Of a DNA stretch of 64,000 bases, positions 1-43,182 are shown in pieces (positions within the stretch are counted from its first letter, which is position 1; each line of letters starts with the position of its first letter). The position numbers and the translations under genes are program-made. This stretch comes from Escherichia coli. GTDB taxonomy: Bacteria > Pseudomonadota > Gammaproteobacteria > Enterobacterales > Enterobacteriaceae. The stretch lies in the NCBI RefSeq assembly GCF_030384885.1, contig NZ_CP128613.1, one strand, 5' to 3'. The notes under the pieces were generated by a model. That model ran no database searches. It saw nothing but the letters and a program-made list of their open reading frames with translations, and was not told the origin of the DNA.

Positions 1-174
1 CACTGCCGGGAACTTCCGCTGCTACTTAATAATTACAACAGATCTCGCATTCATTGCAACAATATATTCACTTATATTTAACTATAAAACACCATTTCAG
101 TGACATTAGTTTCTACTGGAAAGATGACAGAGTGATGACAGTGATGAAAAAAGCTGTGTGCTTTCAGCAGGATT

Positions 175-2898: not shown

Positions 2899-3729
2899 TT
2901 ACGCGGAGCGAGACGCTGTCGCCCCTGCGCGCGGCGGCAGAGCAAATGCCACCAGCGCCGGGATGAGATAAATAAACCAGACGGCGACTTCGCTGACGCT
3001 CGGCGCTTCCTGATAACCAAAGATACCTTCCATCAGCGTACCGAACAGCGAGTGAGTTGAGAGCACCGCGCTCATATCGAAGGCGATTTCCTGAAAGTGG
3101 TTCCACAGCCCGGCTTCATGAAACGCGCGAATAGCACCTGCCGCCAGCCCTGCGGCGACGAAGAGAATAAACAGGCTGGTCCATTTAAAAAACGCGCCAA
3201 GATTGAGGCGAATACCGCCCCAGTAGAGCAGGAAGCCGAGCACCACGGCTGTAGCAAGACCGAGCATTGCACCCAGCGGAGGCCAGATACCGACATCTTG
3301 TTGAAACGCCGCCAGCAGGAAAAAGACCGACTCCAGTCCTTCCCTTGCAACGGCAAAAAAGACCATCATCACCAGCGCCCAGCCATGATGATTCCCACGC
3401 TGCAATGCGCTATCGACTGCCTGTTCCAGTTGCACTTTGACGTTGCGCGACACTTTACGCATCCAGAAAACCATCCAGGTGAGGATCACCACGGCAATCA
3501 CCGCCACGATACCTTCGAACAATTCCTGCTCTTTTTGCGGAAATTCGCCGGTAGTTTCATTAATGAATATACCCAGCCCCAGGCACAACGCAGCGGCTAG
3601 CAACACGCCAATCCACATGACACCAATCCATCGACCTCGCTGGGTACGCTTAAGATAGCTGGCAATCAGGCTGACAATCAGCGCGGCTTCAAGTCCTTCG
3701 CGCAACATAATGAGAAACGGAACAAACAT
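2899..3729 (-). CDS. efeU: Ferrous iron permease EfeU (FTR1 family), apparently intact
   Basis: Continuous ORF; 276 aa from MFVPF; REGLE motifs (REGLEAAL, REGLESVF) typical of FTR1 permeases; no frameshift seen. Confidence 0.85.
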   Translation of the reverse strand: MFVPFLIMLREGLEAALIVSLIASYLKRTQRGRWIGVMWIGVLLAAALCLGLGIFINETTGEFPQKEQELFEGIVAVIAVVILTWMVFWMRKVSRNVKVQLEQAVDSALQRGNHHGWALVMMVFFAVAREGLESVFFLLAAFQQDVGIWPPLGAMLGLATAVVLGFLLYWGGIRLNLGAFFKWTSLFILFVAAGLAAGAIRAFHEAGLWNHFQEIAFDMSAVLSTHSLFGTLMEGIFGYQEAPSVSEVAVWFIYLIPALVAFALPPRAGATASRSA

Positions 3730-33749: not shown

Positions 33750-33923
33750 TCACATTATTTTGATTTTGACATCATAGCTTTCAAGCCCAGTCATTTTTTC
33801 TCGTGCGGTGAAGCGAATTTCAGAGACTTCTTTCCCTGTATTCTTGTTCAACTCGGCGATTTTTTGCGCGATAAAGTCGGCGATTTCCGTTTCGGCTTGT
33901 TTTTTTAACTCTTCAATATTCAC
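33750..33923 (-). CDS. gnsA: GnsA (secG null mutant suppressor), 57 aa
   Basis: Manual translation gives (V/M)NIEELKKQAETEIADFIAQKIAELNKNTGKEVSEIRFTAREKMTGLESYDVKIKIM with GTG start and AAGAGG RBS. Confidence 0.8.
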   Translation of the reverse strand: MNIEELKKQAETEIADFIAQKIAELNKNTGKEVSEIRFTAREKMTGLESYDVKIKIM

Positions 33924-34014
33924 TGTTAACCTCTTCTGGTCTTAAAAGACAGCAACACGCCAGTAAGGTGTTGGTTCCCGGTACCCTGGTCAGGTAAGAA
34001 ATGTTATAAGCCAT
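33913..34014 (-). pseudogene. ymcE-like small ORF, apparently lacking the N-terminal part and an ATG start
   Basis: Frame reads ...SWSLFYICLIFFNAVCIVSDNLLIIESLGEMAYNISYLTRVPGTNTLLACCCLLRPEEVNSEY after an in-frame stop at 34117-34119; only ATG is at 34014 (34 aa). Confidence 0.25.
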
Positions 34015-34086
34015 CTCCCCTAAAGATTCAATAATCAACAGGTTATCGCTTACTATACATACAGCGTTGAAGAAAATAAGGCAGAT

Positions 34087-34112
34087 ATAAAAAAGGCTCC
34101 ACGAGGGAGCCT
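34087..34112 (-). terminator. Intrinsic terminator downstream of cspG
   Basis: Hairpin ggctcc-acgag-ggagcc followed by a T-run on the minus strand. Confidence 0.65.
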
Positions 34113-34315
34113 GATCTTATTTTGTGAAATCCAGCGGCGCATGGTCAGTGCGTATTTGCAGCGCGACGTTATCAAAGGTGATCATCGTCGATTTACAAAA
34201 AATACACTTTGCCCCTAAAGGATTTCGCTCCGTCACATCGAATGCCGATGTGCGGTACTGTGAACCATGACAACATGGACAGCGGAAATGGAGATGTTGA
34301 GTAATAACGGCAACC

Positions 34316-34528
34316 TTAGAGCGTAACAACGTTCGCTGCCGCGGGACCACGTTGCCCCTGCTCAATAGAAAATTCAACTTTCTGATTTTCGTTCAGCGTG
34401 CGGAATTCATTGCTCTGGATGGCGGTGAAATGGACGAAAACGTCTTTGCTGCCATCATCAGGAGTGATAAAGCCAAAACCTTTATCTGCGTTAAACCATT
34501 TTACTAAACCAGTCATTTTATTAGACAT
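34316..34528 (-). CDS. cspG: Cold shock protein CspG
   Basis: 70 aa; [12 protein letters not shown] cold-shock domain. Confidence 0.95.
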
Positions 34529-34813
34529 ATTTTACTTCCTTCATTTTGAGCCTTTCGGCAAACAGGGCTTTAATACAGAAACTACTTAGTGTTCAGGAGA
34601 GAGACTCAAAAGAAGGGGATAATGCCTGATAATGAGAACTGCTTTAGTAAACTACTTTGTATGCTGTCTGTCTTTCAAACCGACTCAGCTATTAACGCAT
34701 GATAATTGAGATTAAGCAATTTTTATTTTAGCCGTCCGGCGGTCTTAAATATCGCTGGCTTTATTTTATTAACCCCGTATAGTGCAGCGCAGTATTTTCA
34801 GTAAGGAATTTGT

Positions 34814-35026
34814 TTGCCCCGTAAAATGACAGGAATTGTCAAAACCTTTGATCGCAAAAGCGGCAAAGGATTCATTATCCCCTCCGACGGTCGTAAAGAA
34901 GTCCAGGTCCATATTTCCGCATTCACTCCCCGCGACGCAGAAGTACTTATACCAGGATTACGCGTGGAATTTTGCCGCGTAAATGGCCTACGCGGACCAA
35001 CAGCGGCAAATGTTTATCTCTCTTAA
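34814..35026 (+). CDS. cspH: Cold shock-like protein CspH
   Basis: 70 aa CSD protein divergent from cspG. Confidence 0.9.
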
Positions 35027-35467
35027 GATGACGCAGCTTGTTTAAAGCTGGCTGTTTTTATTAAAAAAGCTCAATAGTCAATATCGCACATTATAACAAA
35101 AGTTACTTTCACCCCAGAAAACAAATCCATTTGGCCGAATATCTCTGCACCTAATAGTTATAAATGCTACTTAACAGTCAATCATAGTACCGCTTGAAAC
35201 TATATCACCAACAATAGTTAATAGCTTTCTTAACAATTTTCTTATCTTTAATTTATATTTTTCTAAGATTTATCTTGTGCTCACAAGTCGTATTTCCAGA
35301 GGGGAATAGTTAACAATCTTATATTTCCCTCTGCGCGCCTTCCCCACCCGCAGTATATAGTGCTAGCGGTATGCGGAAAGGGAGATTTCACAAGGATGTT
35401 ATACTCAAAGTAGACAATCCTGATCTCAAGCGTACGTATTGTCCATGCGATGAATAAAGGAAAAGTT

Positions 35468-35773
35468 ATGAAACACAAGCTTTCTGCAATCCTTATGGCC
35501 TTCATGTTGACGACGCCAGCTGCGTTTGCTGCACCAGAAGCAGCAAACGGGACCGAGGCAACGACGGGTACTACTGGCACCACAACGACCACTACTGGTG
35601 CCACTACGACTGCTGCTACCACCGGTGGCGTAGCTGCTGGCGCTGTCGGCACGGCGACGGTTGTCGGTGTGGCAACGGCTGTTGGTGTGGCGACTTTGGC
35701 AGTAGTTGCAGCAAATGACAGTGGCGATGGCGGTTCTCATAACACCTCAACCACCACGTCCACTACGCGCTAA
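35468..35773 (+). CDS. gfcA: Threonine-rich inner membrane protein GfcA (group 4 capsule operon)
   Basis: 101 aa from MKHKLSAILM; long T/G/A low-complexity tract. Confidence 0.85.
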   Translation: MKHKLSAILMAFMLTTPAAFAAPEAANGTEATTGTTGTTTTTTGATTTAATTGGVAAGAVGTATVVGVATAVGVATLAVVAANDSGDGGSHNTSTTTSTTR

Positions 35774-35879
35774 TACTGCTTTAACGCGTCAAAATTAAAG
35801 TTAAATGATACCCGGTTGCGATATTCGTACCGGGCTTTAGAGATTTGCATTTTTTTAATTAACCTTTCAAGGATTAAAG

Positions 35880-36524
35880 GTGCGCCCTCTTATTTTATCG
35901 ATTTTCGCACTATTTCTTGCGGGATGTACGCACAGCCAGCAAAGTATGGTCGATACATTTCGCTCCAGCCTTTTCGATAATCAGGATATCACCGTAGCGG
36001 ATCAGCAGATACAGGCGTTGCCTTATTCCTCGATGTATTTACGCCTTAATGAAGGGCAACGAATCTTTGTGGTACTGGGATATATAGAACAAGAACAAAG
36101 CAAATGGTTATCCCAGGATAACGCCATGCTGGTTACCCACAATGGACGTCTTTTAAAAACCGTCAAACTTAATAATAATCTGCTGGAAGTGACAAATTCC
36201 GGGCAGGACCCTCTGCGTAACGCGCTGGCAATAAAAGACGGCAGCCGCTGGACGCGCGATATTCTCTGGAGTGAAGACAATCATTTTCGCTCTGCGACCC
36301 TGAGTTCCACTTTTTCCTTTGCTGGATTAGAGACGCTGAATATTGCGGGTCGCGATGTGCTGTGTAATGTCTGGCAGGAAGAGGTGACTTCCACGCTGCC
36401 AGAAAAACAGTGGCAAAACACATTCTGGGTCGATTCGGCTACTGGCCAGGTTCGTCAAAGTCGGCAAATGTTAGGCGCAGGGGTTATTCCCGTAGAAATG
36501 ACGTTTCTTAAACCCGCACCATGA
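35880..36524 (+). CDS. gfcB: Lipoprotein GfcB
   Basis: 214 aa; lipobox LAGC. Confidence 0.9.
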   Translation: MRPLILSIFALFLAGCTHSQQSMVDTFRSSLFDNQDITVADQQIQALPYSSMYLRLNEGQRIFVVLGYIEQEQSKWLSQDNAMLVTHNGRLLKTVKLNNNLLEVTNSGQDPLRNALAIKDGSRWTRDILWSEDNHFRSATLSSTFSFAGLETLNIAGRDVLCNVWQEEVTSTLPEKQWQNTFWVDSATGQVRQSRQMLGAGVIPVEMTFLKPAP

Positions 36525-37267
36525 ATAAATTACAGTCGTATTTCATTGCCAGCGTACTTTACGTAATGACACCCCATGCCTTTGCGCAAGGAACGGTGAC
36601 TATTTATCTGCCTGGCGAACAACAGCCCCTTTCCGTTGGCCCCGTGGAGAATGTTGTCCAGTTGGTGACACAACCGCAACTGCGCGATCGCCTCTGGTGG
36701 CCTGGAGTCTTGCTGACCGACTCCGCGGCGAAAGCTAAAGCGCTTAAAGACTACCAACATGTCATGGCACAGCTTGCTTCCTGGGAAGCAGAAGCTGACG
36801 ACGATGTGGCGGCAACGATTAAATCCGTGCGCCAGCAGTTACTCAATCTCAATATCACTGGTCGCTTACCGGTCAAACTGGACCCTGATTTTGTACGAAT
36901 GGATGAGAACAGCAATCCCCCGCTGGTCGGGGACTATACGCTCTATACCGTACAGCGCCCAGTGACTATTACTCTGCTGGGTGCGGTTTCTGGGGCTGGG
37001 CAATTGCCCTGGCAGGCAGGCCGTAGCGTTACCGATTATCTGCAAGATACCCCCCGTCTTGCAGGCGCGGACAAGAATAACGTTATGGTGATTACGCCTG
37101 AGGGTGAGACTGTCGTCGCCCCTGTTGCCCTGTGGAATAAAAGACATGTGGAACCACCGCCTGGCAGCCAGCTTTGGTTGGGCTTTTCTGCGCATGTACT
37201 GCCCGAAAAATATGCTGATTTAAATGACCAGATTGTGTCTGTTTTAACGCAACGTGTTCCTGACTGA
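36521..37267 (+). CDS. gfcC: GfcC (group 4 capsule)
   Basis: 248 aa with signal peptide; 4 bp overlap with gfcB. Confidence 0.9.
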
Positions 37268-39363
37268 TGAAGAAGAACTCTTATCTTTTAAGCTGCCTGG
37301 CCATTGCCGTCTCCAGTGCCTGTCATGCTGAAGTATTCACCTACCCGGATCCGCTGGGGTCGTCGCAATCAGACTTTGGCGGCACAGGATTGTTGCAGAT
37401 GCCAAATGCGCGCATCGCACCGGAAGGTGAATTCAGCGTCAACTACCGGGATAACGATCAATACCGTTTCTACTCCACGTCCGTGGCGCTGTTCCCATGG
37501 CTGGAAGGCACCATTCGTTATACGGATGTGCGCACACGCAAATATAGCCAGTGGGAAGATTTCAGCGGCGATCAGGCATACAAAGACAAATCTTTCGATT
37601 TTAAACTTCGCCTGTGGGAAGAAGGTTACTGGCTACCGCAAGTGGCGTTTGGTAAACGTGATATTGCTGGTACGGGTCTGTTTGACGGTGAATATCTGGT
37701 GGCCAGCAAGCAAGCGGGGCCATTTGATTTCACCCTCGGGATGGCGTGGGGCTACGCCGGTAATGCGGGCAATATTACCAACCCGTTTTGCCGGGTGAGC
37801 GATAAATATTGTCATCGTGCAGAGTCTCACGATGCGGGAGATATCAGCTTTAGCGATATCTTTCGTGGTCCGGCGTCCATCTTTGGCGGCATTGAGTATC
37901 AAACGCCGTGGAATCCTCTGCGTCTGAAACTCGAATACGACGGCAACAATTACCAGAATGATTTTGCGGGCAAATTGCCGCAGGCAAGTCATTTCAATTT
38001 CGGTGCTGTGTATCGTGCTGCCAGCTGGGCAGATCTTAACCTTAGCTACGAGCGCGGTAACACATTGATGTTTGGCTTCACATTACGGACCAATTTCAAC
38101 GATCTGCGCCCTGCCCTGCGCGATACGCCAAAACCGGCGTATCAACCTGCGCCGGAATCTGAAGGATTGCAGTACACCACAGTAGCGAACCAACTTACCG
38201 CGTTGAAGTATAACGCGGGCTTTGACGCGCCAGAAATTCAGCTGCGCGATAAGACGCTATATATGTCTGGTCAGCAATACAAATACCGTGACTCTCGTGA
38301 AGCGGTCGATCGTGCCAACCGGATTCTGGTGAATAACCTGCCGCAAGGCGTTGAGAAGATTAGCGTGACGCAAAAGCGCGAGCATATGACGATGGTGACT
38401 ACCGAAACCGACGTAGCCAGCCTGCGCAAACAGCTGGCCGGTACAGCGCCAGGTCAATCAGAGCCACTGCAACAACAACGTGTTGAAGCTGAAGATCTTT
38501 CTGCCTTTGGTCGGGGCTACCGTATTCGTGAAGATCGCTTTAGCTACTCTTTCAACCCAACACTTTCACAGTCGCTGGGCGGCCCGGAAGATTTCTATAT
38601 GTTCCAGTTGGGGCTGATGTCCAGCGCCCGCTACTGGTTTACCGATCACCTGCTGCTTGATGGCGGTATTTTCACCAATATTTACAACAACTACGACAAG
38701 TTTAAGTCTTCGCTGTTACCCGCGGACTCTACCCTCCCCCGCGTGCGCACGCATATCCGTGACTACGTTCGCAATGACGTTTATCTCAACAACTTGCAGG
38801 CGAACTATTTTGCCGACTTAGGCAATGGTTTCTATGGCCAGGTGTACGGCGGTTATCTGGAAACGATGTATGCCGGTGTTGGTTCCGAGCTGCTTTATCG
38901 CCCGCTCGATGCCAGCTGGGCGCTGGGGGTGGACGTTAACTACGTGAAGCAGCGTGACTGGGACAACATGATGCGCTTCACCGATTATTCCACGCCAACA
39001 GGTTTCGTGACGGCTTACTGGAACCCGCCGACGCTCAACGGCGTACTGATGAAACTCAGCGTTGGGCAATATCTGGCAAAAGATAAAGGGGCAACCATCG
39101 ACGTCGCCAAACGCTTTGACAGCGGCGTGGCGGTAGGGGTATGGGCGGCAATCAGTAACGTATCTAAAGATGACTACGGCGAAGGCGGCTTTAGTAAAGG
39201 TTTTTATATCTCGATTCCGTTCGACTTGATGACCATTGGACCTAACCGCAACCGCGCGGTGGTTTCGTGGACACCATTGACGCGTGATGGTGGACAAATG
39301 CTGTCACGTAAATACCAGCTCTATCCAATGACGGCAGAGCGAGAAGTACCGGTTGGACAATAA
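37267..39363 (+). CDS. gfcD: Outer membrane protein GfcD
   Basis: 698 aa with signal peptide. Confidence 0.9.
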
Positions 39364-39408
39364 CCTGACGTAATTCATAACATTACATTGACTGATAAAT
39401 ATAAACCA

Positions 39409-40548
39409 ATGAAAAAGAACATTTTTAAGTTTTCGGTACTGACATTGGCTGTTCTGTCTTTGACAGCATGTACCCTTGTTCCTGGTCAGAATTTATCGAC
39501 CAGTAACAAGGATGTCATTGAACTACCTGACAATCAGTATGACCTGGACAAAATGGTCAATATCTATCCCGTCACGCCAGGATTGATTGATCAGCTGCGC
39601 GCCAAACCGATTATGTCGCAGGCTAACCCGGAGCTGGAGCAGCAAATCGCGAACTATGAATATCGTATCGGCATTGGTGATGTGTTGATGGTGACGGTCT
39701 GGGATCACCCGGAACTAACCACACCCGCAGGGCAATATCGTAGCGCCAGTGATACTGGCAACTGGGTTAACGCTGATGGTGCAATTTTCTACCCTTATAT
39801 TGGTCGCCTGAAAGTGGCCGGGAAAACGCTTACCCAAGTACGCAACGAGATTACAGCGCGTCTGGACTCAGTCATTGAAAGCCCACAAGTCGATGTCAGC
39901 GTCGCGGCGTTCCGATCGCAAAAAGCGTACGTCACCGGCGAAGTCAGCAAATCGGGTCAGCAGCCGATTACCAATATTCCTCTGACCATCATGGATGCGA
40001 TTAACGCCGCGGGCGGTCTGACCGCAGATGCAGACTGGCGCAACGTGGTGCTCACCCAGAATGGCGTAAAGACCAAAGTGAACCTCTATGCGCTGATGCA
40101 GCGTGGCGACTTGCGCCAGAACAAACTGCTGCACCCGGGCGATATTTTATTTATTCCGCGCAACGATGATCTGAAAGTCTTCGTGATGGGTGAAGTGGGT
40201 AAACAGAGCACGTTGAAAATGGACCGCAGCGGTATGACCCTGGCGGAAGCACTGGGTAACGCTGAGGGTATGAATCAGGATGTCGCTGATGCGACGGGGA
40301 TTTTTGTTATTCGTGCAACGCAAAACAAGCAGAATGGCAAAATCGCCAATATTTATCAGCTGAATGCGAAGGACGCATCGGCAATGATACTCGGAACGGA
40401 ATTCCAGCTTGAACCTTACGACATTGTTTATGTCACTACCGCGCCGCTGGCTCGTTGGAACCGTGTGATTTCTCTGCTGGTACCGACGATTTCCGGGGTG
40501 CATGACCTGACAGAGACTTCACGGTGGATTCAAACATGGCCCAACTAA
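39409..40548 (+). CDS. gfcE: Wza-like outer membrane polysaccharide export lipoprotein GfcE
   Basis: 379 aa from [21 protein letters not shown]. Confidence 0.9.
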
Positions 40549-40982
40549 AATTTAACTCAATCCTGGTGGTTTGTACCGGCAACATTTGCCGTTCGCCCAT
40601 TGGCGAGCGCTTGCTGCGTAAACGTCTGCCAGGCGTAAAAGTCAAATCGGCAGGTGTTCATGGTCTGGTAAAGCACCCTGCAGATGCGACAGCGGCAGAT
40701 GTTGCCGCTAATCATGGCGTATCTCTTGAAGGACATGCCGGACGTAAGCTAACGGCTGAGATGGCACGAAATTACGATCTGATTCTGGCAATGGAGTCAG
40801 AGCATATTGCTCAGGTTACAGCAATCGCTCCCGAGGTCCGCGGGAAGACAATGCTGTTTGGGCAATGGCTGGAACAGAAAGAGATTCCGGATCCCTATCG
40901 TAAAAGTCAGGACGCATTTGAGCATGTCTACGGTATGTTGGAGCGCGCCAGTCAGGAATGGACGAAGCGCCTCAGCCGGTAA
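40536..40982 (+). CDS. etp: Low-molecular-weight phosphotyrosine phosphatase Etp
   Basis: 148 aa; CTGNICRS P-loop. Confidence 0.93.
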
Positions 40983-41001
40983 TTTGAGTTTATAAAATAC
41001 G

Positions 41002-43182
41002 ATGACAACTAAAAATATGAATACGCCACCAGGCAGCACTCAGGAAAATGAGATCGATCTGCTTCGTCTGGTCGGCGAGTTATGGGATCACCGTAAGTTT
41101 ATTATCAGCGTAACCGCGTTGTTCACGCTGATCGCTGTCGCTTACTCGCTGTTAAGCACGCCAATTTATCAGGCAGATACGCTGGTCCAGGTTGAGCAGA
41201 AACAGGGCAACGCCATTCTCAGCGGCCTGAGCGATATGATCCCTAACTCATCGCCCGAGTCAGCACCGGAGATCCAACTGCTGCAATCGCGCATGATTCT
41301 CGGTAAAACCATTGCTGAACTGAATCTGCGCGACATGGTTGAGCAGAAGTATTTTCCGATTGTGGGTCGCGGCTGGGCGAGATTAACCAAAGAGAAACCA
41401 GGTGAGCTGGCGATCAGCTGGATGCACATCCCACAACTGAATGGTCAGGATCAGCAACTTACACTCACAGTTGGGGAAAACGGCCACTATACGCTGGAAG
41501 GTGAAGGGTTCACCGTCAATGGTATGGTCGGCCAGCGTCTGGAAAAAGACGGCGTTGCGTTGACTATCGCGGACATTAAGGCCAAACCAGGAACGCAGTT
41601 TGTCCTGAGCCAGCGTACCGAACTGGAAGCGATTAACGCGTTGCAGGAAACCTTTACCGTTAGCGAACGCAGTAAAGAAAGCGGGATGCTGGAACTTACC
41701 ATGACCGGTGATGATCCCCAGTTGATTACTCGTATTCTGAACAGCATCGCTAACAACTATTTGCAACAGAATATCGCTCGCCAGGCGGCGCAGGATTCAC
41801 AAAGCCTTGAATTCTTACAGCGCCAGTTGCCAGAAGTGCGCAGCGAGCTGGACCAGGCGGAAGAAAAACTCAACGTTTATCGCCAGCAGCGCGATTCGGT
41901 TGACCTTAACCTGGAAGCCAAAGCCGTTCTTGAGCAGATTGTTAACGTTGATAATCAACTCAATGAGCTGACCTTCCGCGAGGCCGAGATCTCCCAGCTG
42001 TATAAGAAAGATCACCCAACTTATCGTGCGCTGCTGGAAAAACGCCAGACGCTGGAGCAAGAACGCAAACGCCTGAATAAGCGGGTATCGGCAATGCCTT
42101 CCACTCAACAGGAAGTATTGCGTTTAAGCCGTGACGTAGAAGCGGGCCGTGCGGTATATCTGCAATTACTTAACCGCCAGCAGGAGTTGAGTATTTCGAA
42201 ATCCAGTGCGATTGGTAACGTGCGGATTATCGACCCGGCAGTCACTCAGCCGCAGCCAGTGAAACCGAAAAAAGCGTTGAATGTGGTGCTTGGTTTTATT
42301 CTTGGCCTGTTTATTTCGGTGGGTGCCGTGCTGGCGCGTGCGATGTTGCGTCGTGGTGTAGAAGCACCGGAACAACTGGAAGAGCACGGCATCAGCGTTT
42401 ATGCCACTATCCCGATGTCCGAGTGGCTGGATAAGCGTACCCGTCTGCGTAAGAAAAATTTATTTTCTAATCAGCAGCGCCATCGTACTAAAAATATCCC
42501 CTTCCTGGCGGTGGATAACCCGGCGGATTCTGCTGTGGAAGCCGTACGTGCGCTACGAACCAGTCTGCATTTCGCTATGATGGAGACTGAGAATAATATT
42601 CTGATGATCACGGGTGCGACGCCAGACAGTGGTAAAACGTTCGTCAGTTCAACTCTGGCAGCGGTGATCGCCCAGTCCGATCAAAAAGTGTTATTTATTG
42701 ATGCCGACTTACGCCGTGGTTATTCGCATAACCTGTTTACCGTGAGTAATGAACATGGCTTGTCGGAATATCTGGCAGGGAAAGATGAGCTCAACAAAGT
42801 GATCCAGCATTTTGGCAAAGGAGGCTTTGATGTGATTACTTGCGGTCAGGTGCCACCTAACCCGTCTGAACTGCTGATGCGCGATCGGATGCGTCAATTA
42901 CTGGAATGGGCGAACGACCATTACGATCTGGTGATTGTCGATACGCCGCCGATGCTGGCAGTGAGCGATGCTGCGGTCGTGGGACGCTCTGTCGGCACCA
43001 GCCTGCTGGTTGCGCGTTTTGGCTTGAACACCGCCAAAGAGGTGAGCTTGTCAATGCAGCGTCTGGAACAGGCTGGCGTTAATATTAAAGGCGCAATCCT
43101 CAATGGTGTGATTAAACGCGCCAGCACCGCTTACAGTTATGGCTATAACTATTATGGTTATAGTTACTCCGAGAAAGAGTAA
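41002..43182 (+). CDS. etk: BY-kinase (tyrosine autokinase) Etk
   Basis: 726 aa; Walker A GATPDSGKT; C-terminal tyrosine cluster YSYGYNYYGYSY. Confidence 0.95.
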   Translation: MTTKNMNTPPGSTQENEIDLLRLVGELWDHRKFIISVTALFTLIAVAYSLLSTPIYQADTLVQVEQKQGNAILSGLSDMIPNSSPESAPEIQLLQSRMILGKTIAELNLRDMVEQKYFPIVGRGWARLTKEKPGELAISWMHIPQLNGQDQQLTLTVGENGHYTLEGEGFTVNGMVGQRLEKDGVALTIADIKAKPGTQFVLSQRTELEAINALQETFTVSERSKESGMLELTMTGDDPQLITRILNSIANNYLQQNIARQAAQDSQSLEFLQRQLPEVRSELDQAEEKLNVYRQQRDSVDLNLEAKAVLEQIVNVDNQLNELTFREAEISQLYKKDHPTYRALLEKRQTLEQERKRLNKRVSAMPSTQQEVLRLSRDVEAGRAVYLQLLNRQQELSISKSSAIGNVRIIDPAVTQPQPVKPKKALNVVLGFILGLFISVGAVLARAMLRRGVEAPEQLEEHGISVYATIPMSEWLDKRTRLRKKNLFSNQQRHRTKNIPFLAVDNPADSAVEAVRALRTSLHFAMMETENNILMITGATPDSGKTFVSSTLAAVIAQSDQKVLFIDADLRRGYSHNLFTVSNEHGLSEYLAGKDELNKVIQHFGKGGFDVITCGQVPPNPSELLMRDRMRQLLEWANDHYDLVIVDTPPMLAVSDAAVVGRSVGTSLLVARFGLNTAKEVSLSMQRLEQAGVNIKGAILNGVIKRASTAYSYGYNYYGYSYSEKE

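Follow-up and report, generated by a model that had tools for sequence, protein, structure and literature searches.

The threonine-rich tract of GfcA, first product of the group 4 capsule operon of Escherichia coli: protein-level selection and constant length

The threonine-rich, low-complexity tract discussed here is the body of GfcA, the known first product of the group 4 (O-antigen) capsule operon of Escherichia coli. Its sequence is kept by purifying selection at the protein level, and its length is 101 codons throughout the species. A low-complexity protein tract is thus, in this case, not an unstable DNA tract; the inference from the one to the other is intuitive and has to be corrected. 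Mixed synonymous codons and strong purifying selection hold the 101 codons across about 3600 genomes. The best explanation as a whole, to which we assign a probability of roughly 0.55, is that GfcA is a known, selected and length-constant capsule protein that would be exported in abundance to act together with GfcBCD in a structural role. The literature already contains the gene, its richness in threonine and the idea of its glycosylation, and the richness is also part of the RefSeq product name.

By “the window” we mean the whole 64-kb stretch of DNA that was analysed. The tract lies there in a single open reading frame, which starts with ATG 35468, ends with TAA 35771-35773 and encodes 101 amino acids plus stop. 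The AAGGA in front of it favours this start over ATG 35450, an upstream alternative at which inspection of the sequence revealed no Shine-Dalgarno motif. The gfcA DNA of the window is 100% identical to that of E. coli 2013C-4282, where the product, WP_001299283.1, carries the name “threonine-rich inner membrane protein GfcA”; O157:H7 F7349 and SC418 bear the same protein. It corresponds to the GfcA (YmcD) of EPEC O127, EHEC O157 and Shigella sonnei, which is encoded in the same operon with the same flanking genes. In the identical record the genes after gfcA are gfcB, gfcC, gfcD, gfcE, etp and etk, and according to this annotation and the layout of the open frames the operon gfcABCDE-etp-etk sits between cspH and appA. 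Two open frames 3′ of gfcA match the Pfam families YjbF and GfcC. The genes gfcB, gfcC and gfcD overlap one another, in contrast to gfcA and gfcB, which are separated by a gap of 106 nt. The GfcA of K-12 is two residues apart from the window protein, and K-12 carries an IS1 about 30-35 nt 5′ of gfcA, an element that the window lacks. As DNA, the allele of the window is rare: an identity of at least 99% is reached in just 8 of 3607 records. Further upstream, the sigma-70-like promoter of Table 1 is a candidate only, because such matches are no commoner there than in shuffled sequence. An Rfam scan of 34000-36500 yielded nothing on gfcA except a chance-level isrG (14.5 bits versus a gathering score of 100).

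Table 1. Positions of gfcA, its parts and neighbouring features in the window
Feature	Coordinates	Strand	Basis or remark
gfcA (ymcD) coding sequence	35468..35773	+	Open reading frame; identical DNA annotated as GfcA WP_001299283.1; changes between alleles synonymous
Shine-Dalgarno-like AAGGA	35457..35461	+	6 nt 5′ of ATG 35468; read from the sequence
Candidate sigma-70-like promoter (TTAACA, 18-nt spacer, TATATT)	35230..35259	+	10/12 consensus match; AT-rich region 5′ of gfcA
Predicted Sec signal peptide, residues 1-21 (MKHKLSAILMAFMLTTPAAFA, then AP)	35468..35530	+	Basic n-region, hydrophobic h-region, A-x-A site
Thr/Gly-rich hydrophilic linker, residues 29-54 (TEATTGTTGTTTTTTGATTTAATTGG)	35552..35629	+	Sequence and length vary between species
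Imperfect 21-nt tandem duplication (TTGTTTT / TTGATTT)	35570..35610	+	TRF period 21, 2.0 copies, 85% matches
Gly/Ala/Val/Thr hydrophobic core, residues 55-82 (VAAGAVGTATVVGVATAVGVATLAVVAA), candidate membrane helix	35630..35713	+	Kyte-Doolittle, AF2, conservation
Imperfect 18-nt (6-aa) repeat, 2.8 copies (GTATVV / GVATAV / GVAT), inside the hydrophobic core	35642..35691	+	TRF period 18, 78% matches
C-terminal tail, residues 83-101 (NDSGDGGSHNTSTTTSTTR)	35714..35770	+	Asp/Gly/Ser motif and poly-Thr run common to GfcA and YjbE
Stem-loop CCCGGUUGCGAUAUUCGUACCGGG between gfcA and gfcB (106-nt gap), with a U-rich stretch behind it	35811..35834	+	dG -13.1 kcal/mol
gfcB (lipoprotein, YjbF family)	35880..36524	+	Pfam PF11102, E = 2e-69; annotation
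Spurious antisense open frame, 123 aa	35281..35652	-	ORF listing; internal stop in O157 and ETEC1746 alleles
Spurious antisense open frame, 104 aa	35426..35740	-	9-14 nt differences between alleles give 9-12 aa changes, versus 0-4 in the sense frame

Threonine (28), alanine (22), glycine (13) and valine (9) make up 71% of the 101 residues of GfcA. The threonine content has been given as 30% (PMC8592465); 28/101 were counted in the window protein. The unbroken run of T, G, A and V comprises residues 31-76 and reaches residue 82 with one Leu77 (51 of 52 residues). An earlier note on this DNA had quoted the string TTGTTGTTTTTTGATTTAATTGG, which is residues 32-54, and had spoken of about 60 residues that are almost exclusively T, G, A and V. 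The composition was described correctly, but the length was overestimated, since 52 residues were counted. The best 52-residue segment of GfcA consists of these four amino acids to 98%. Across the window, 233 open frames are at least 80 aa long; their median share is 35%, and 56% marks the 99th percentile. The next-best real protein reaches 58%, and the runner-up frame, at 81%, is the antisense frame of the GfcA tract itself.

The DNA of the tract is, as had been noted, GC-rich (61-64% versus 28-46% in the flanks). That it is also repetitive applies in a weak sense: TRF detects imperfect repeats, but the longest exact repeat in the coding sequence measures 8 nt. This repeat is so short because the threonine codons are mixed (ACG 11, ACC 8, ACT 8, ACA 1); with one codon per residue the longest repeat would, by computation, be 16 nt. 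Selection against DNA repeats was considered as a cause and dropped: synonymous-codon shuffles yield a mean of 9.6 nt, and 25% of them have 8 nt or less, so the observed value is not significantly shorter. The codon mixing in gfcA is ordinary use, without evidence of selection beyond that. With its synonymous codons mixed, the gene is not a slippage-prone repeat.

Among 5426 complete E. coli genomes, 3607 contain gfcA, and in 3591 of these the match extends over at least 80% of the gene. A distant blastn search against the E. coli genomes returned the same 3607 as megablast, which implies that the genomes without a match truly lack gfcA and do not hide a diverged allele. For the length survey, two evenly spread samples of 60 rows each were drawn from the gfcA-bearing genomes. 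The gene was exactly 306 nt long in 58 of 60 rows of either sample, i.e., in 116/120; the four others are all disruptions by IS1 or IS5, be it insertions or deletions. The allele of a cryptic clade, with 90.8% identity, also has 306 nt. With this constancy, and with perfect repeats missing, the expectation that the tract is prone to length variation among strains had to be abandoned. On a longer timescale it is partly justified: the length does vary between species, solely in the Thr-rich part, but not within E. coli.

The substitutions point to selection at the protein level. Compared with the alleles of O157:H7 and SC418, the window allele has 10 and 9 nt differences, respectively, and no amino acid change; compared with K-12 it has 12 synonymous and 2 non-synonymous ones (A26T, A50T). 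The low nucleotide identity of gfcA results from its many four-fold degenerate codons. An unusually high synonymous divergence was also taken into account and rejected, the pS of 0.136 being in line with the region (gfcD 0.127, torS 0.129). The clustered protein collection contains neither of the exact GfcA sequences (101 aa, 107 aa) and provided no population data. A homologue search in the protein collection gave 31 matches, the majority being E. coli products with a frameshift or a truncation that stem from raw assemblies. The informative ones among these are an E. albertii protein (P0005), a variant with six residues deleted (P0002) and a remote homologue (P0028).

Behind a Sec-type signal peptide the protein consists of three modules: a hydrophilic linker (residues ~29-54), a hydrophobic segment (~55-82) and a C-terminal tail. 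The h-region of the signal peptide has a Kyte-Doolittle 12-residue mean of 1.99, and we infer that the peptide is cleaved. Variation is concentrated around the linker. Residues 25-60 hold both amino acid differences to K-12 and 9 of the 11 cryptic-clade differences. GfcA of E. albertii has 5-7 residues fewer in the Thr-rich part, with a 15-nt deletion in the linker, and Enterobacter-type homologues have just ~15 linker residues. The longer linker of E. coli likely originated from the 21-nt duplication, where E. albertii is gapped.

The hydrophobic core hardly varies in the GfcA-type homologues of several genera. Its Kyte-Doolittle 19-residue mean of 2.16 exceeds the classical threshold of 1.6, and a simple Hessa-scale sum of +0.98 kcal/mol is marginal. 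AF2, based on a 12-sequence alignment, predicts a helix from 59 to 84 with low confidence (pLDDT <55 there; mean pLDDT 45). In the tail, D87, T93 and T95-97 show at least 90% conservation in an alignment of GfcA- and YjbE-type proteins. Pfam and NCBIfam returned no family match for GfcA, and a PDB profile search nothing relevant. NCBIfam NF041742 (WGxxGxxG) scored 17.3 bits (E = 0.005) versus its 35-bit cut-off, over residues 1-47 only; this was judged to be compositional. The region concerned is the signal peptide plus the Gly/Thr region.

The arrangement of a small secreted protein 5′ of a YjbF/GfcB lipoprotein gene is widespread. With a GfcB plus YjbF profile, 21 gfcB/yjbF loci from other species were found. 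In 21/21 a small ORF with a signal peptide, 80-129 aa long if read from the first ATG, lies 69-192 nt 5′ of the gfcB/yjbF homologue, and in 21/21 it consists of T, S, G, A and V to 60-79%. The window, with its gap of 106 nt, has the same arrangement. The GfcA type proper is a very narrow family: an exhaustive HMMER search with its profile detected just 15 representative clusters and contributed one new homologue (P0032).

The presumed paralogue of GfcA is YjbE (Pfam PF11106), which belongs to the Rcs-regulated yjbEFGH exopolysaccharide operon. It occupies the same operon position, 5′ of a YjbF/GfcB lipoprotein, a GfcC-family protein and a YjbH/GfcD barrel. Like GfcA it has a signal peptide, a small-residue low-complexity body and a C-terminal tail of GDG-S-NT-poly-Thr type, and its gene is likewise followed by a hairpin. 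The two also differ. With its 80 aa, YjbE is devoid of the ~18-residue Thr/Gly linker of GfcA; it has Ser where GfcA has Gly, Val or Ala and contains no transmembrane-grade segment (Kyte-Doolittle 1.24 versus 2.16). BLASTP of GfcA versus YjbE produced no alignment, and in hhalign the GfcA-type and YjbE-type profiles align in their signal peptides alone. PF11106, with a gathering threshold of 27.9 bits, does not match the window protein even at E <= 10. It gives 16.0 bits for E. albertii GfcA and 15.2 for an Enterobacter GfcA-like protein, both below that threshold, 43.3 for a Mixta protein and 113.6 for YjbE. In sequence, GfcA and YjbE are only weakly homologous; what speaks for their homology is synteny, architecture and intermediate sequences. 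The regularities of the family, i.e., a small-residue first gene in 21/21 loci, the poly-Thr tail of GfcA and YjbE, a TM-like segment that YjbE does not conserve and the usual hairpin, could guide experiments on capsule attachment.

This hairpin is, in the window, a candidate for a partial terminator or an mRNA-stabilising structure. When 23 gaps were folded (those of the 21 loci, of the window and of K-12 yjbE), the strongest local structure behind the small gene was in most cases a stable hairpin that ends in a short U-rich tail; the sequences of the stems are unrelated between lineages. A consensus terminator scan did not call the stem-loop of the window, which lacks an adjacent U-run, and its fold z-score is just -1.6. 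Among the surface-structure transcripts measured in EPEC, gfcA mRNA ranked first in abundance (PMC3853201).

That GfcA is needed for the capsule is known. An EPEC gfcA deletion mutant is unencapsulated, and pgfcA restores the capsule in trans (PMC3853201). All seven genes are required according to a passage of PMC4368438 that cites Peleg 2005. An activation of the Rcs envelope-stress response, as mentioned in PMC8117528, is the inference of its authors, made ahead of a transcript measurement in that strain. As to the mechanism, GfcA would be exported by Sec and remain largely disordered. Present in stoichiometric amounts, it might serve the outer-membrane module of GfcB, GfcC and GfcD as a structural partner or as cargo. 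The linker with its many threonines would then be a flexible hydrophilic periplasmic spacer, and the hydrophobic segment may hold GfcA in a membrane or in a partner protein. GfcA would be neither an enzyme nor a cis-regulatory leader. Taken jointly, these steps have about an even chance of being right.

Of course, GfcA could simply be what its RefSeq product name says: a single-pass inner-membrane protein with a transmembrane helix, a periplasmic linker and a cytoplasmic tail, whose partners would be Etk, Wzx and Wzy rather than GfcBCD. The Kyte-Doolittle value of the core, the tentative AF2 helix and the near-invariance of the segment are in favour of such a topology. However, the annotation is itself a prediction only, Gly and Thr abound in the segment, whose Hessa-scale sum is positive, and the sole basic residue behind it is the C-terminal Arg, which lends weak positive-inside support. 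Moreover, no such hydrophobic stretch exists in YjbE or in the Mixta protein, although both share the operon position and the tail. Since the equivalent region of YjbE is Ser-rich and non-hydrophobic, membrane anchoring cannot be the mechanism of the whole family; and a segment that spans the inner membrane after cleavage of the signal peptide would place the poly-Thr tail in the cytoplasm in GfcA, but in the periplasm in YjbE. Finally, the gene is always linked to gfcBCD/yjbFGH, the yjbEFGH-type loci included, and the latter may have no wza-wzb-wzc homologues encoded nearby (PMC8592465). We consider the annotated topology with these partners rather unlikely. Less probable still is a mucin-like carrier, the Thr and Ser of which would be modified with O-antigen polymer in the periplasm and which GfcB/GfcC would pass to the GfcD double barrel to anchor the group 4 capsule. 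The idea was proposed, as a speculation, in PMC8592465, where a LolA-like fold suited to a hydrophobic ligand is described for GfcB. It is attractive in that GfcA is required in trans, the anchor of group 4 capsules is still being sought, poly-Thr is the one sequence feature common to GfcA and YjbE, and expression of the gene seems to be high, which a stoichiometric acceptor would require. With 28% Thr, a predicted signal peptide and a Thr/Gly linker, GfcA has the Ser/Thr-rich exported tract of a mucin-like domain. Like mucin-like linkers and bacterial O-glycoprotein acceptors (PglL/PilO substrates), it is Thr-rich, hydrophilic, of low complexity, predicted to be exported and part of a surface-glycan system, and its linker conserves composition rather than exact sequence. 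It differs from them in lacking a Pro-rich context, in its short tract (~25 residues) and in having no oligosaccharyltransferase in the operon. Indeed, according to the annotation of the identical record, the operon encodes neither a glycosyltransferase nor an O-oligosaccharyltransferase. Nor is E. coli known to have a general O-glycosylation system, which we also count against the carrier. Further, no glycopeptide has ever been reported, no conserved sequon was seen (in the alignment, neither YjbE nor the Mixta protein has the N-x-S/T of N92), a core that forms a transmembrane helix would put the conserved tail into the cytoplasm, and deletion of waaL makes the capsule heterogeneous, not absent (PMC3853201). 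A wider version, which we regard as equally doubtful, would see in the GfcA and YjbE types a conserved class of abundant exported small-residue polypeptides. Their poly-Thr tail, in GfcA together with the Thr-rich linker, might be the point at which polysaccharide is attached covalently or non-covalently, and the LolA-like GfcB/GfcC pair might hand the peptide to the GfcD double barrel. If this were true, GfcA and YjbE would provide the surface anchor that has long been sought for group 4 capsules and for the YjbEFGH exopolysaccharide, and the stem-loop 3′ of the gene would set the high ratio of peptide to machinery that an anchor needs.

Two other explanations relate to the nucleic acid instead of the protein. 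One, which takes up the length variation suggested in the earlier note, is a hypermutable contingency locus: simple-sequence DNA in which slippage would change the length of the tract and thereby switch or tune the capsule. A low-complexity coding sequence in a surface-structure gene is indeed what gfcA has in common with phase-variable loci such as those with the lic tetranucleotide repeats of Haemophilus. The weak 21-nt and 18-nt tandem repeats, the indels between species, scattered frameshifted products, mostly from raw-read assemblies, and rare variants, such as the one protein cluster (P0002) that lacks six residues (GATTTA), could be cited as well. Perfect tandem repeats, however, are not there (TRF matches of 78-85% in 2-2.8 copies), a polymorphism of repeat number was not seen in the 120 rows sampled from the ~3600 genomes, among which the exceptions are IS-mediated, alleles that have diverged by up to 9% keep the same length, and the substitutions between them are overwhelmingly synonymous. 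A contingency locus is, hence, highly improbable. We give even less credit to a leader ORF acting in cis, which would sense Thr-tRNA by its 28 Thr codons and control read-through of the hairpin into gfcBCDE, as does the leader of the thr operon. Between the Thr-rich ORF and gfcB there is a hairpin with its U-rich tract, and this layout is conserved in the family. But a plasmid complements the gfcA deletion in trans, which largely refutes the idea; purifying selection acts on the amino acid sequence, with signal peptide and non-Thr segments; the tract of YjbE is mostly Ser, not Thr; and the hairpin lies at least 38 nt past the stop codon, so that a translating ribosome would not control it.

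There remain the long antisense open frames across the tract, which the earlier note had called spurious. Both are present, and both are artefacts of codon composition. With ACN, GGN, GCN and GTN as sense codons, two of the three antisense frames contain just 1 and 2 triplets that form a stop. The 9-10 nt differences between alleles that are silent in the sense frame cause 9-10 amino acid changes in the shorter of the two. Neither frame should be annotated.

GfcA is the product of a real gene that is needed in trans; selection on the protein maintains its low-complexity sequence, which is stable in length and modular. The gene is not new, and its richness in threonine had been noted before. 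The name proposed in the earlier note is correct, since E. coli 2013C-4282, 100% identical to the window over 801 bases around gfcA, has the same ORF annotated as WP_001299283.1, “threonine-rich inner membrane protein GfcA”, in the order cspH-gfcA-gfcB-gfcC-gfcD-gfcE-etp-etk-appA, and since Pfam recognises YjbF/GfcB (E = 2e-69) and the N- and C-terminal domains of GfcC in the two ORFs 3' of it. No Pfam model matches GfcA itself, and NCBIfam yields a single sub-threshold match of compositional nature. RefSeq names are inconsistent: alleles with one or few residue changes (e.g., R101P, T47K) go under “hypothetical protein”, presumably since GfcA is covered by no HMM and a near-exact match is needed. 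A collection of 15 billion proteins lacks the canonical 101- and 107-residue forms and contains frameshifted or truncated ones (109-residue products and others); low-complexity proteins of this kind may be under-represented in such collections.

Features of the gfcA region (window coordinates) and of the GfcA protein (residues)
Feature	Position	Strand	Remark
gfcA ORF	35468-35773	+	101 codons + TAA
Ribosome-binding site AAGGA	35457-35461	+	upstream of gfcA start
Whole gfcA-etk operon	35027-43182		
Stem-loop	35811-35834		within gfcA-gfcB gap 35774-35879
Signal peptide	residues 1-21		A-F-A then A-P; from alignment
Thr/Gly linker	residues ~29-54		from alignment
Gly/Ala/Val/Thr hydrophobic core	residues 55-82		nearly invariant among GfcA-type proteins
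C-terminal tail	NDSGDGGSHNTSTTTSTTR		from alignment

The composition is extreme. Of 101 residues, 28 are T, 22 A, 13 G and 9 V, and residues 31-82 consist of these four throughout, Leu77 being the sole exception; the low-complexity tract thus exists, with 52 residues instead of the roughly 60 assumed earlier. Its T/G/A/V content (98% in the best 52-residue stretch) is far beyond chance: for all open frames of 80 residues or more in the window (233), the median is 35% and the 99th percentile 56%, and the highest value among its other real proteins is 58%. The DNA is indeed GC-rich (61-64% versus 28-46% in the flanks). That it is repetitive holds only for imperfect repeats, a 21-nt unit twice (85% matches) and an 18-nt unit 2.8 times (78% matches) according to TRF; the longest exact repeat in the coding sequence measures 8 nt, because the Thr codons are mixed (ACG 11, ACC 8, ACT 8, ACA 1).

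Judged by its substitutions, gfcA is under selection for its protein: all 10 differences from O157:H7 and all 9 from SC418 are synonymous, as are 12 of those from K-12, where two are not (A26T, A50T). Nucleotide identity to K-12 is 95.4%. An unusual divergence of the gene was considered and rejected, pS being on a par (gfcA 0.136, gfcD 0.127, torS 0.129). The antisense ORFs at 35281-35652 and 35426-35740 are present and, as suspected, spurious; they exist because the sense codons leave few antisense stops (1, 2 and 7 stop-forming triplets per frame across gfcA). Comparison of alleles shows no conservation of either as coding sequence. Against O157, SC418 and ETEC1746, 9-15 nucleotide differences change 0, 0 and 4 amino acids of GfcA but 9-12 of the product of 35426-35740, and in two of these alleles 35281-35652 is interrupted by a stop codon.

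Megablast and sensitive blastn agree in finding gfcA in 3607 of 5426 complete E. coli genomes, at least 80% of it being covered in 3591. When 60 rows were sampled evenly along the ranking for each of two query alleles, 58 had exactly 306 nt with either allele, so that the presumed proneness to length variation among strains is not borne out; even a cryptic-clade allele of 90.8% identity keeps frame and length. The exceptions are IS damage, the only disruption sampled: IS1 in the last codons (L6-21, apparently also cM2a) and an IS5-associated deletion (VREC0864). The entire operon is absent from about one third of the genomes (e.g., O25b:H4 and other human isolates), where cspH abuts appA, and the cspG-appA interval is covered to at least 80% in only 3698 of 5426. 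The polymorphism therefore consists in presence or absence of the operon and in IS damage, not in tract length. A contingency locus, which would live on such length changes, is accordingly a very improbable reading of the tract. Around gfcA, IS damage is recurrent (loci L002, L003, L008 = PSJ-32-1, VREC0864, L6-21; H258, H39) and comprises IS1 in the last codons, IS5-associated loss of most of the gene, and a case in which IS1 and ISKpn26 have removed gfcA together with the start of gfcB (its 5' end). In K-12, an IS1 (L004:9260-9957) sits about 30-35 nt 5' of the start codon, between a promoter-like site and the gene. The equivalent site of the window (~35430-35440) has no insertion, as in O157 and EPEC-type loci, and the operon is therefore probably expressible.

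A search with a GfcB+YjbF profile, one genome per species, gave 21 loci (Escherichia, Enterobacter, Mixta, Citrobacter, Lelliottia, Pluralibacter, Buttiauxella, Arsukibacterium and others). All 21 have, 69-192 nt upstream of the gfcB/yjbF homologue, a small ORF (80-129 residues from the first ATG) with a signal peptide and 60-79% T/S/G/A/V. Differences between Escherichia GfcA alleles lie mostly in the linker, where the 21-nt imperfect duplication (TTGTTTT/TTGATTT) also falls. In E. albertii the linker falls short by 5-7 residues (the NBRC 107761 allele has a 15-nt gap); it has about 15 residues in the Enterobacter sp. and P0032 homologues, and is absent from YjbE, product of the first gene of yjbEFGH. 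The YjbE tail, GGGDGSNTGTTTTTTTSTQ, shares a D-G-S...N-T-poly-Thr pattern with GfcA, whereas the part of YjbE that corresponds to the core is Ser-rich (Kyte-Doolittle 1.24). Formal sequence links between the two are weak: BLASTP gave no alignment, hhalign aligned the signal peptides only, and PF11106 does not match the window protein, while the GfcA-like proteins of E. albertii and Enterobacter reach 15-16 bits with it and the Mixta protein 43 bits. An exhaustive profile search retrieved just 15 representative clusters; GfcA-type proteins are therefore a narrow group. A PDB profile search found no solved structure of a relative.

gfcB, gfcC and gfcD overlap one another, and a gap sets the first gene apart. 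In most of 23 folded gaps (the 21 loci, the window and K-12 yjbE; L012, L013, L014, L010:11047-11159, L015-L031), the strongest local structure is a stable hairpin followed by a short U-rich tail. Different lineages have unrelated stem sequences: Escherichia has CCCGGU...ACCGGG, Enterobacter GCCCGGAGC...GCUCCGGG and the yjbE loci AUAACCACAC...GUGUGGUUAU; the Arsukibacterium gaps hold canonical terminators. A consensus terminator scan did not flag the E. coli gfcA-gfcB hairpin. Because gap and recurrent hairpin separate the first gene from the overlapping ones, an excess of GfcA may be argued; the hairpin suggests partial termination or 3'-end stabilisation, which would yield surplus gfcA/yjbE mRNA.

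GfcA has been called “entirely uncharacterized” (10.1101/2023.12.04.565983). In EPEC, its deletion abolishes the capsule and is complemented in trans, and gfcA is the highest-expressed of the surface-structure genes tested (PMC3853201). PMC4368438 reports all seven operon genes as required; activation by Rcs is the authors' inference in PMC8117528. We propose that GfcA would be exported by Sec, stay largely disordered, be made in excess over the proteins encoded downstream and work stoichiometrically with the GfcB-GfcC-GfcD module, its Thr-rich linker acting as a hydrophilic periplasmic spacer and its hydrophobic core holding it in a membrane or in a partner. To this mechanism as a whole we assign a probability of about 50%.

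A strict single-pass inner-membrane protein is a doubtful alternative. The core is hydrophobic (Kyte-Doolittle 19-residue mean 2.16), its Hessa-scale sum is marginal (+0.98 kcal/mol), and a low-confidence AlphaFold2 model (mean pLDDT 45) makes residues 59-84 helical and the rest disordered. A core spanning the inner membrane after signal-peptide cleavage would, however, leave the conserved poly-Thr tail in the cytoplasm, yet that of YjbE must be periplasmic. A glycopeptide carrying O-antigen is rather unlikely; the mucin-like idea is a published speculation (PMC8592465), and deletion of waaL made the capsule heterogeneous instead of abolishing it (PMC3853201). That gfcA might be a Thr-sensing leader peptide has hardly any probability left, being refuted by the complementation in trans. 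The regularities of the family offer modest leads on how the group 4 capsule is attached.

The distant Arsukibacterium counterparts (L028, L029, L031; ORFs ~2920-3362; 125-129 residues) are a more elaborate form of the same first-gene theme, with a Gly/Ala-rich hydrophobic stretch, a run of 7-10 Pro, a Cys-x(9)-Cys motif and a Thr-rich tail TVTVTGTGTGTNTG ending in TFTYAP. Further upstream in the window, a strong match to the cspA thermoregulator 5' UTR of Rfam (RF01766; 34262-34684, minus strand; 157.7 bits, E = 1e-42) covers cspG (34316-34528, minus) and its 5' leader, and ymcE (~33913-34142, minus; L001:7714-7943) carries the annotation of a frameshifted pseudogene in the window-identical strain and is intact in K-12.
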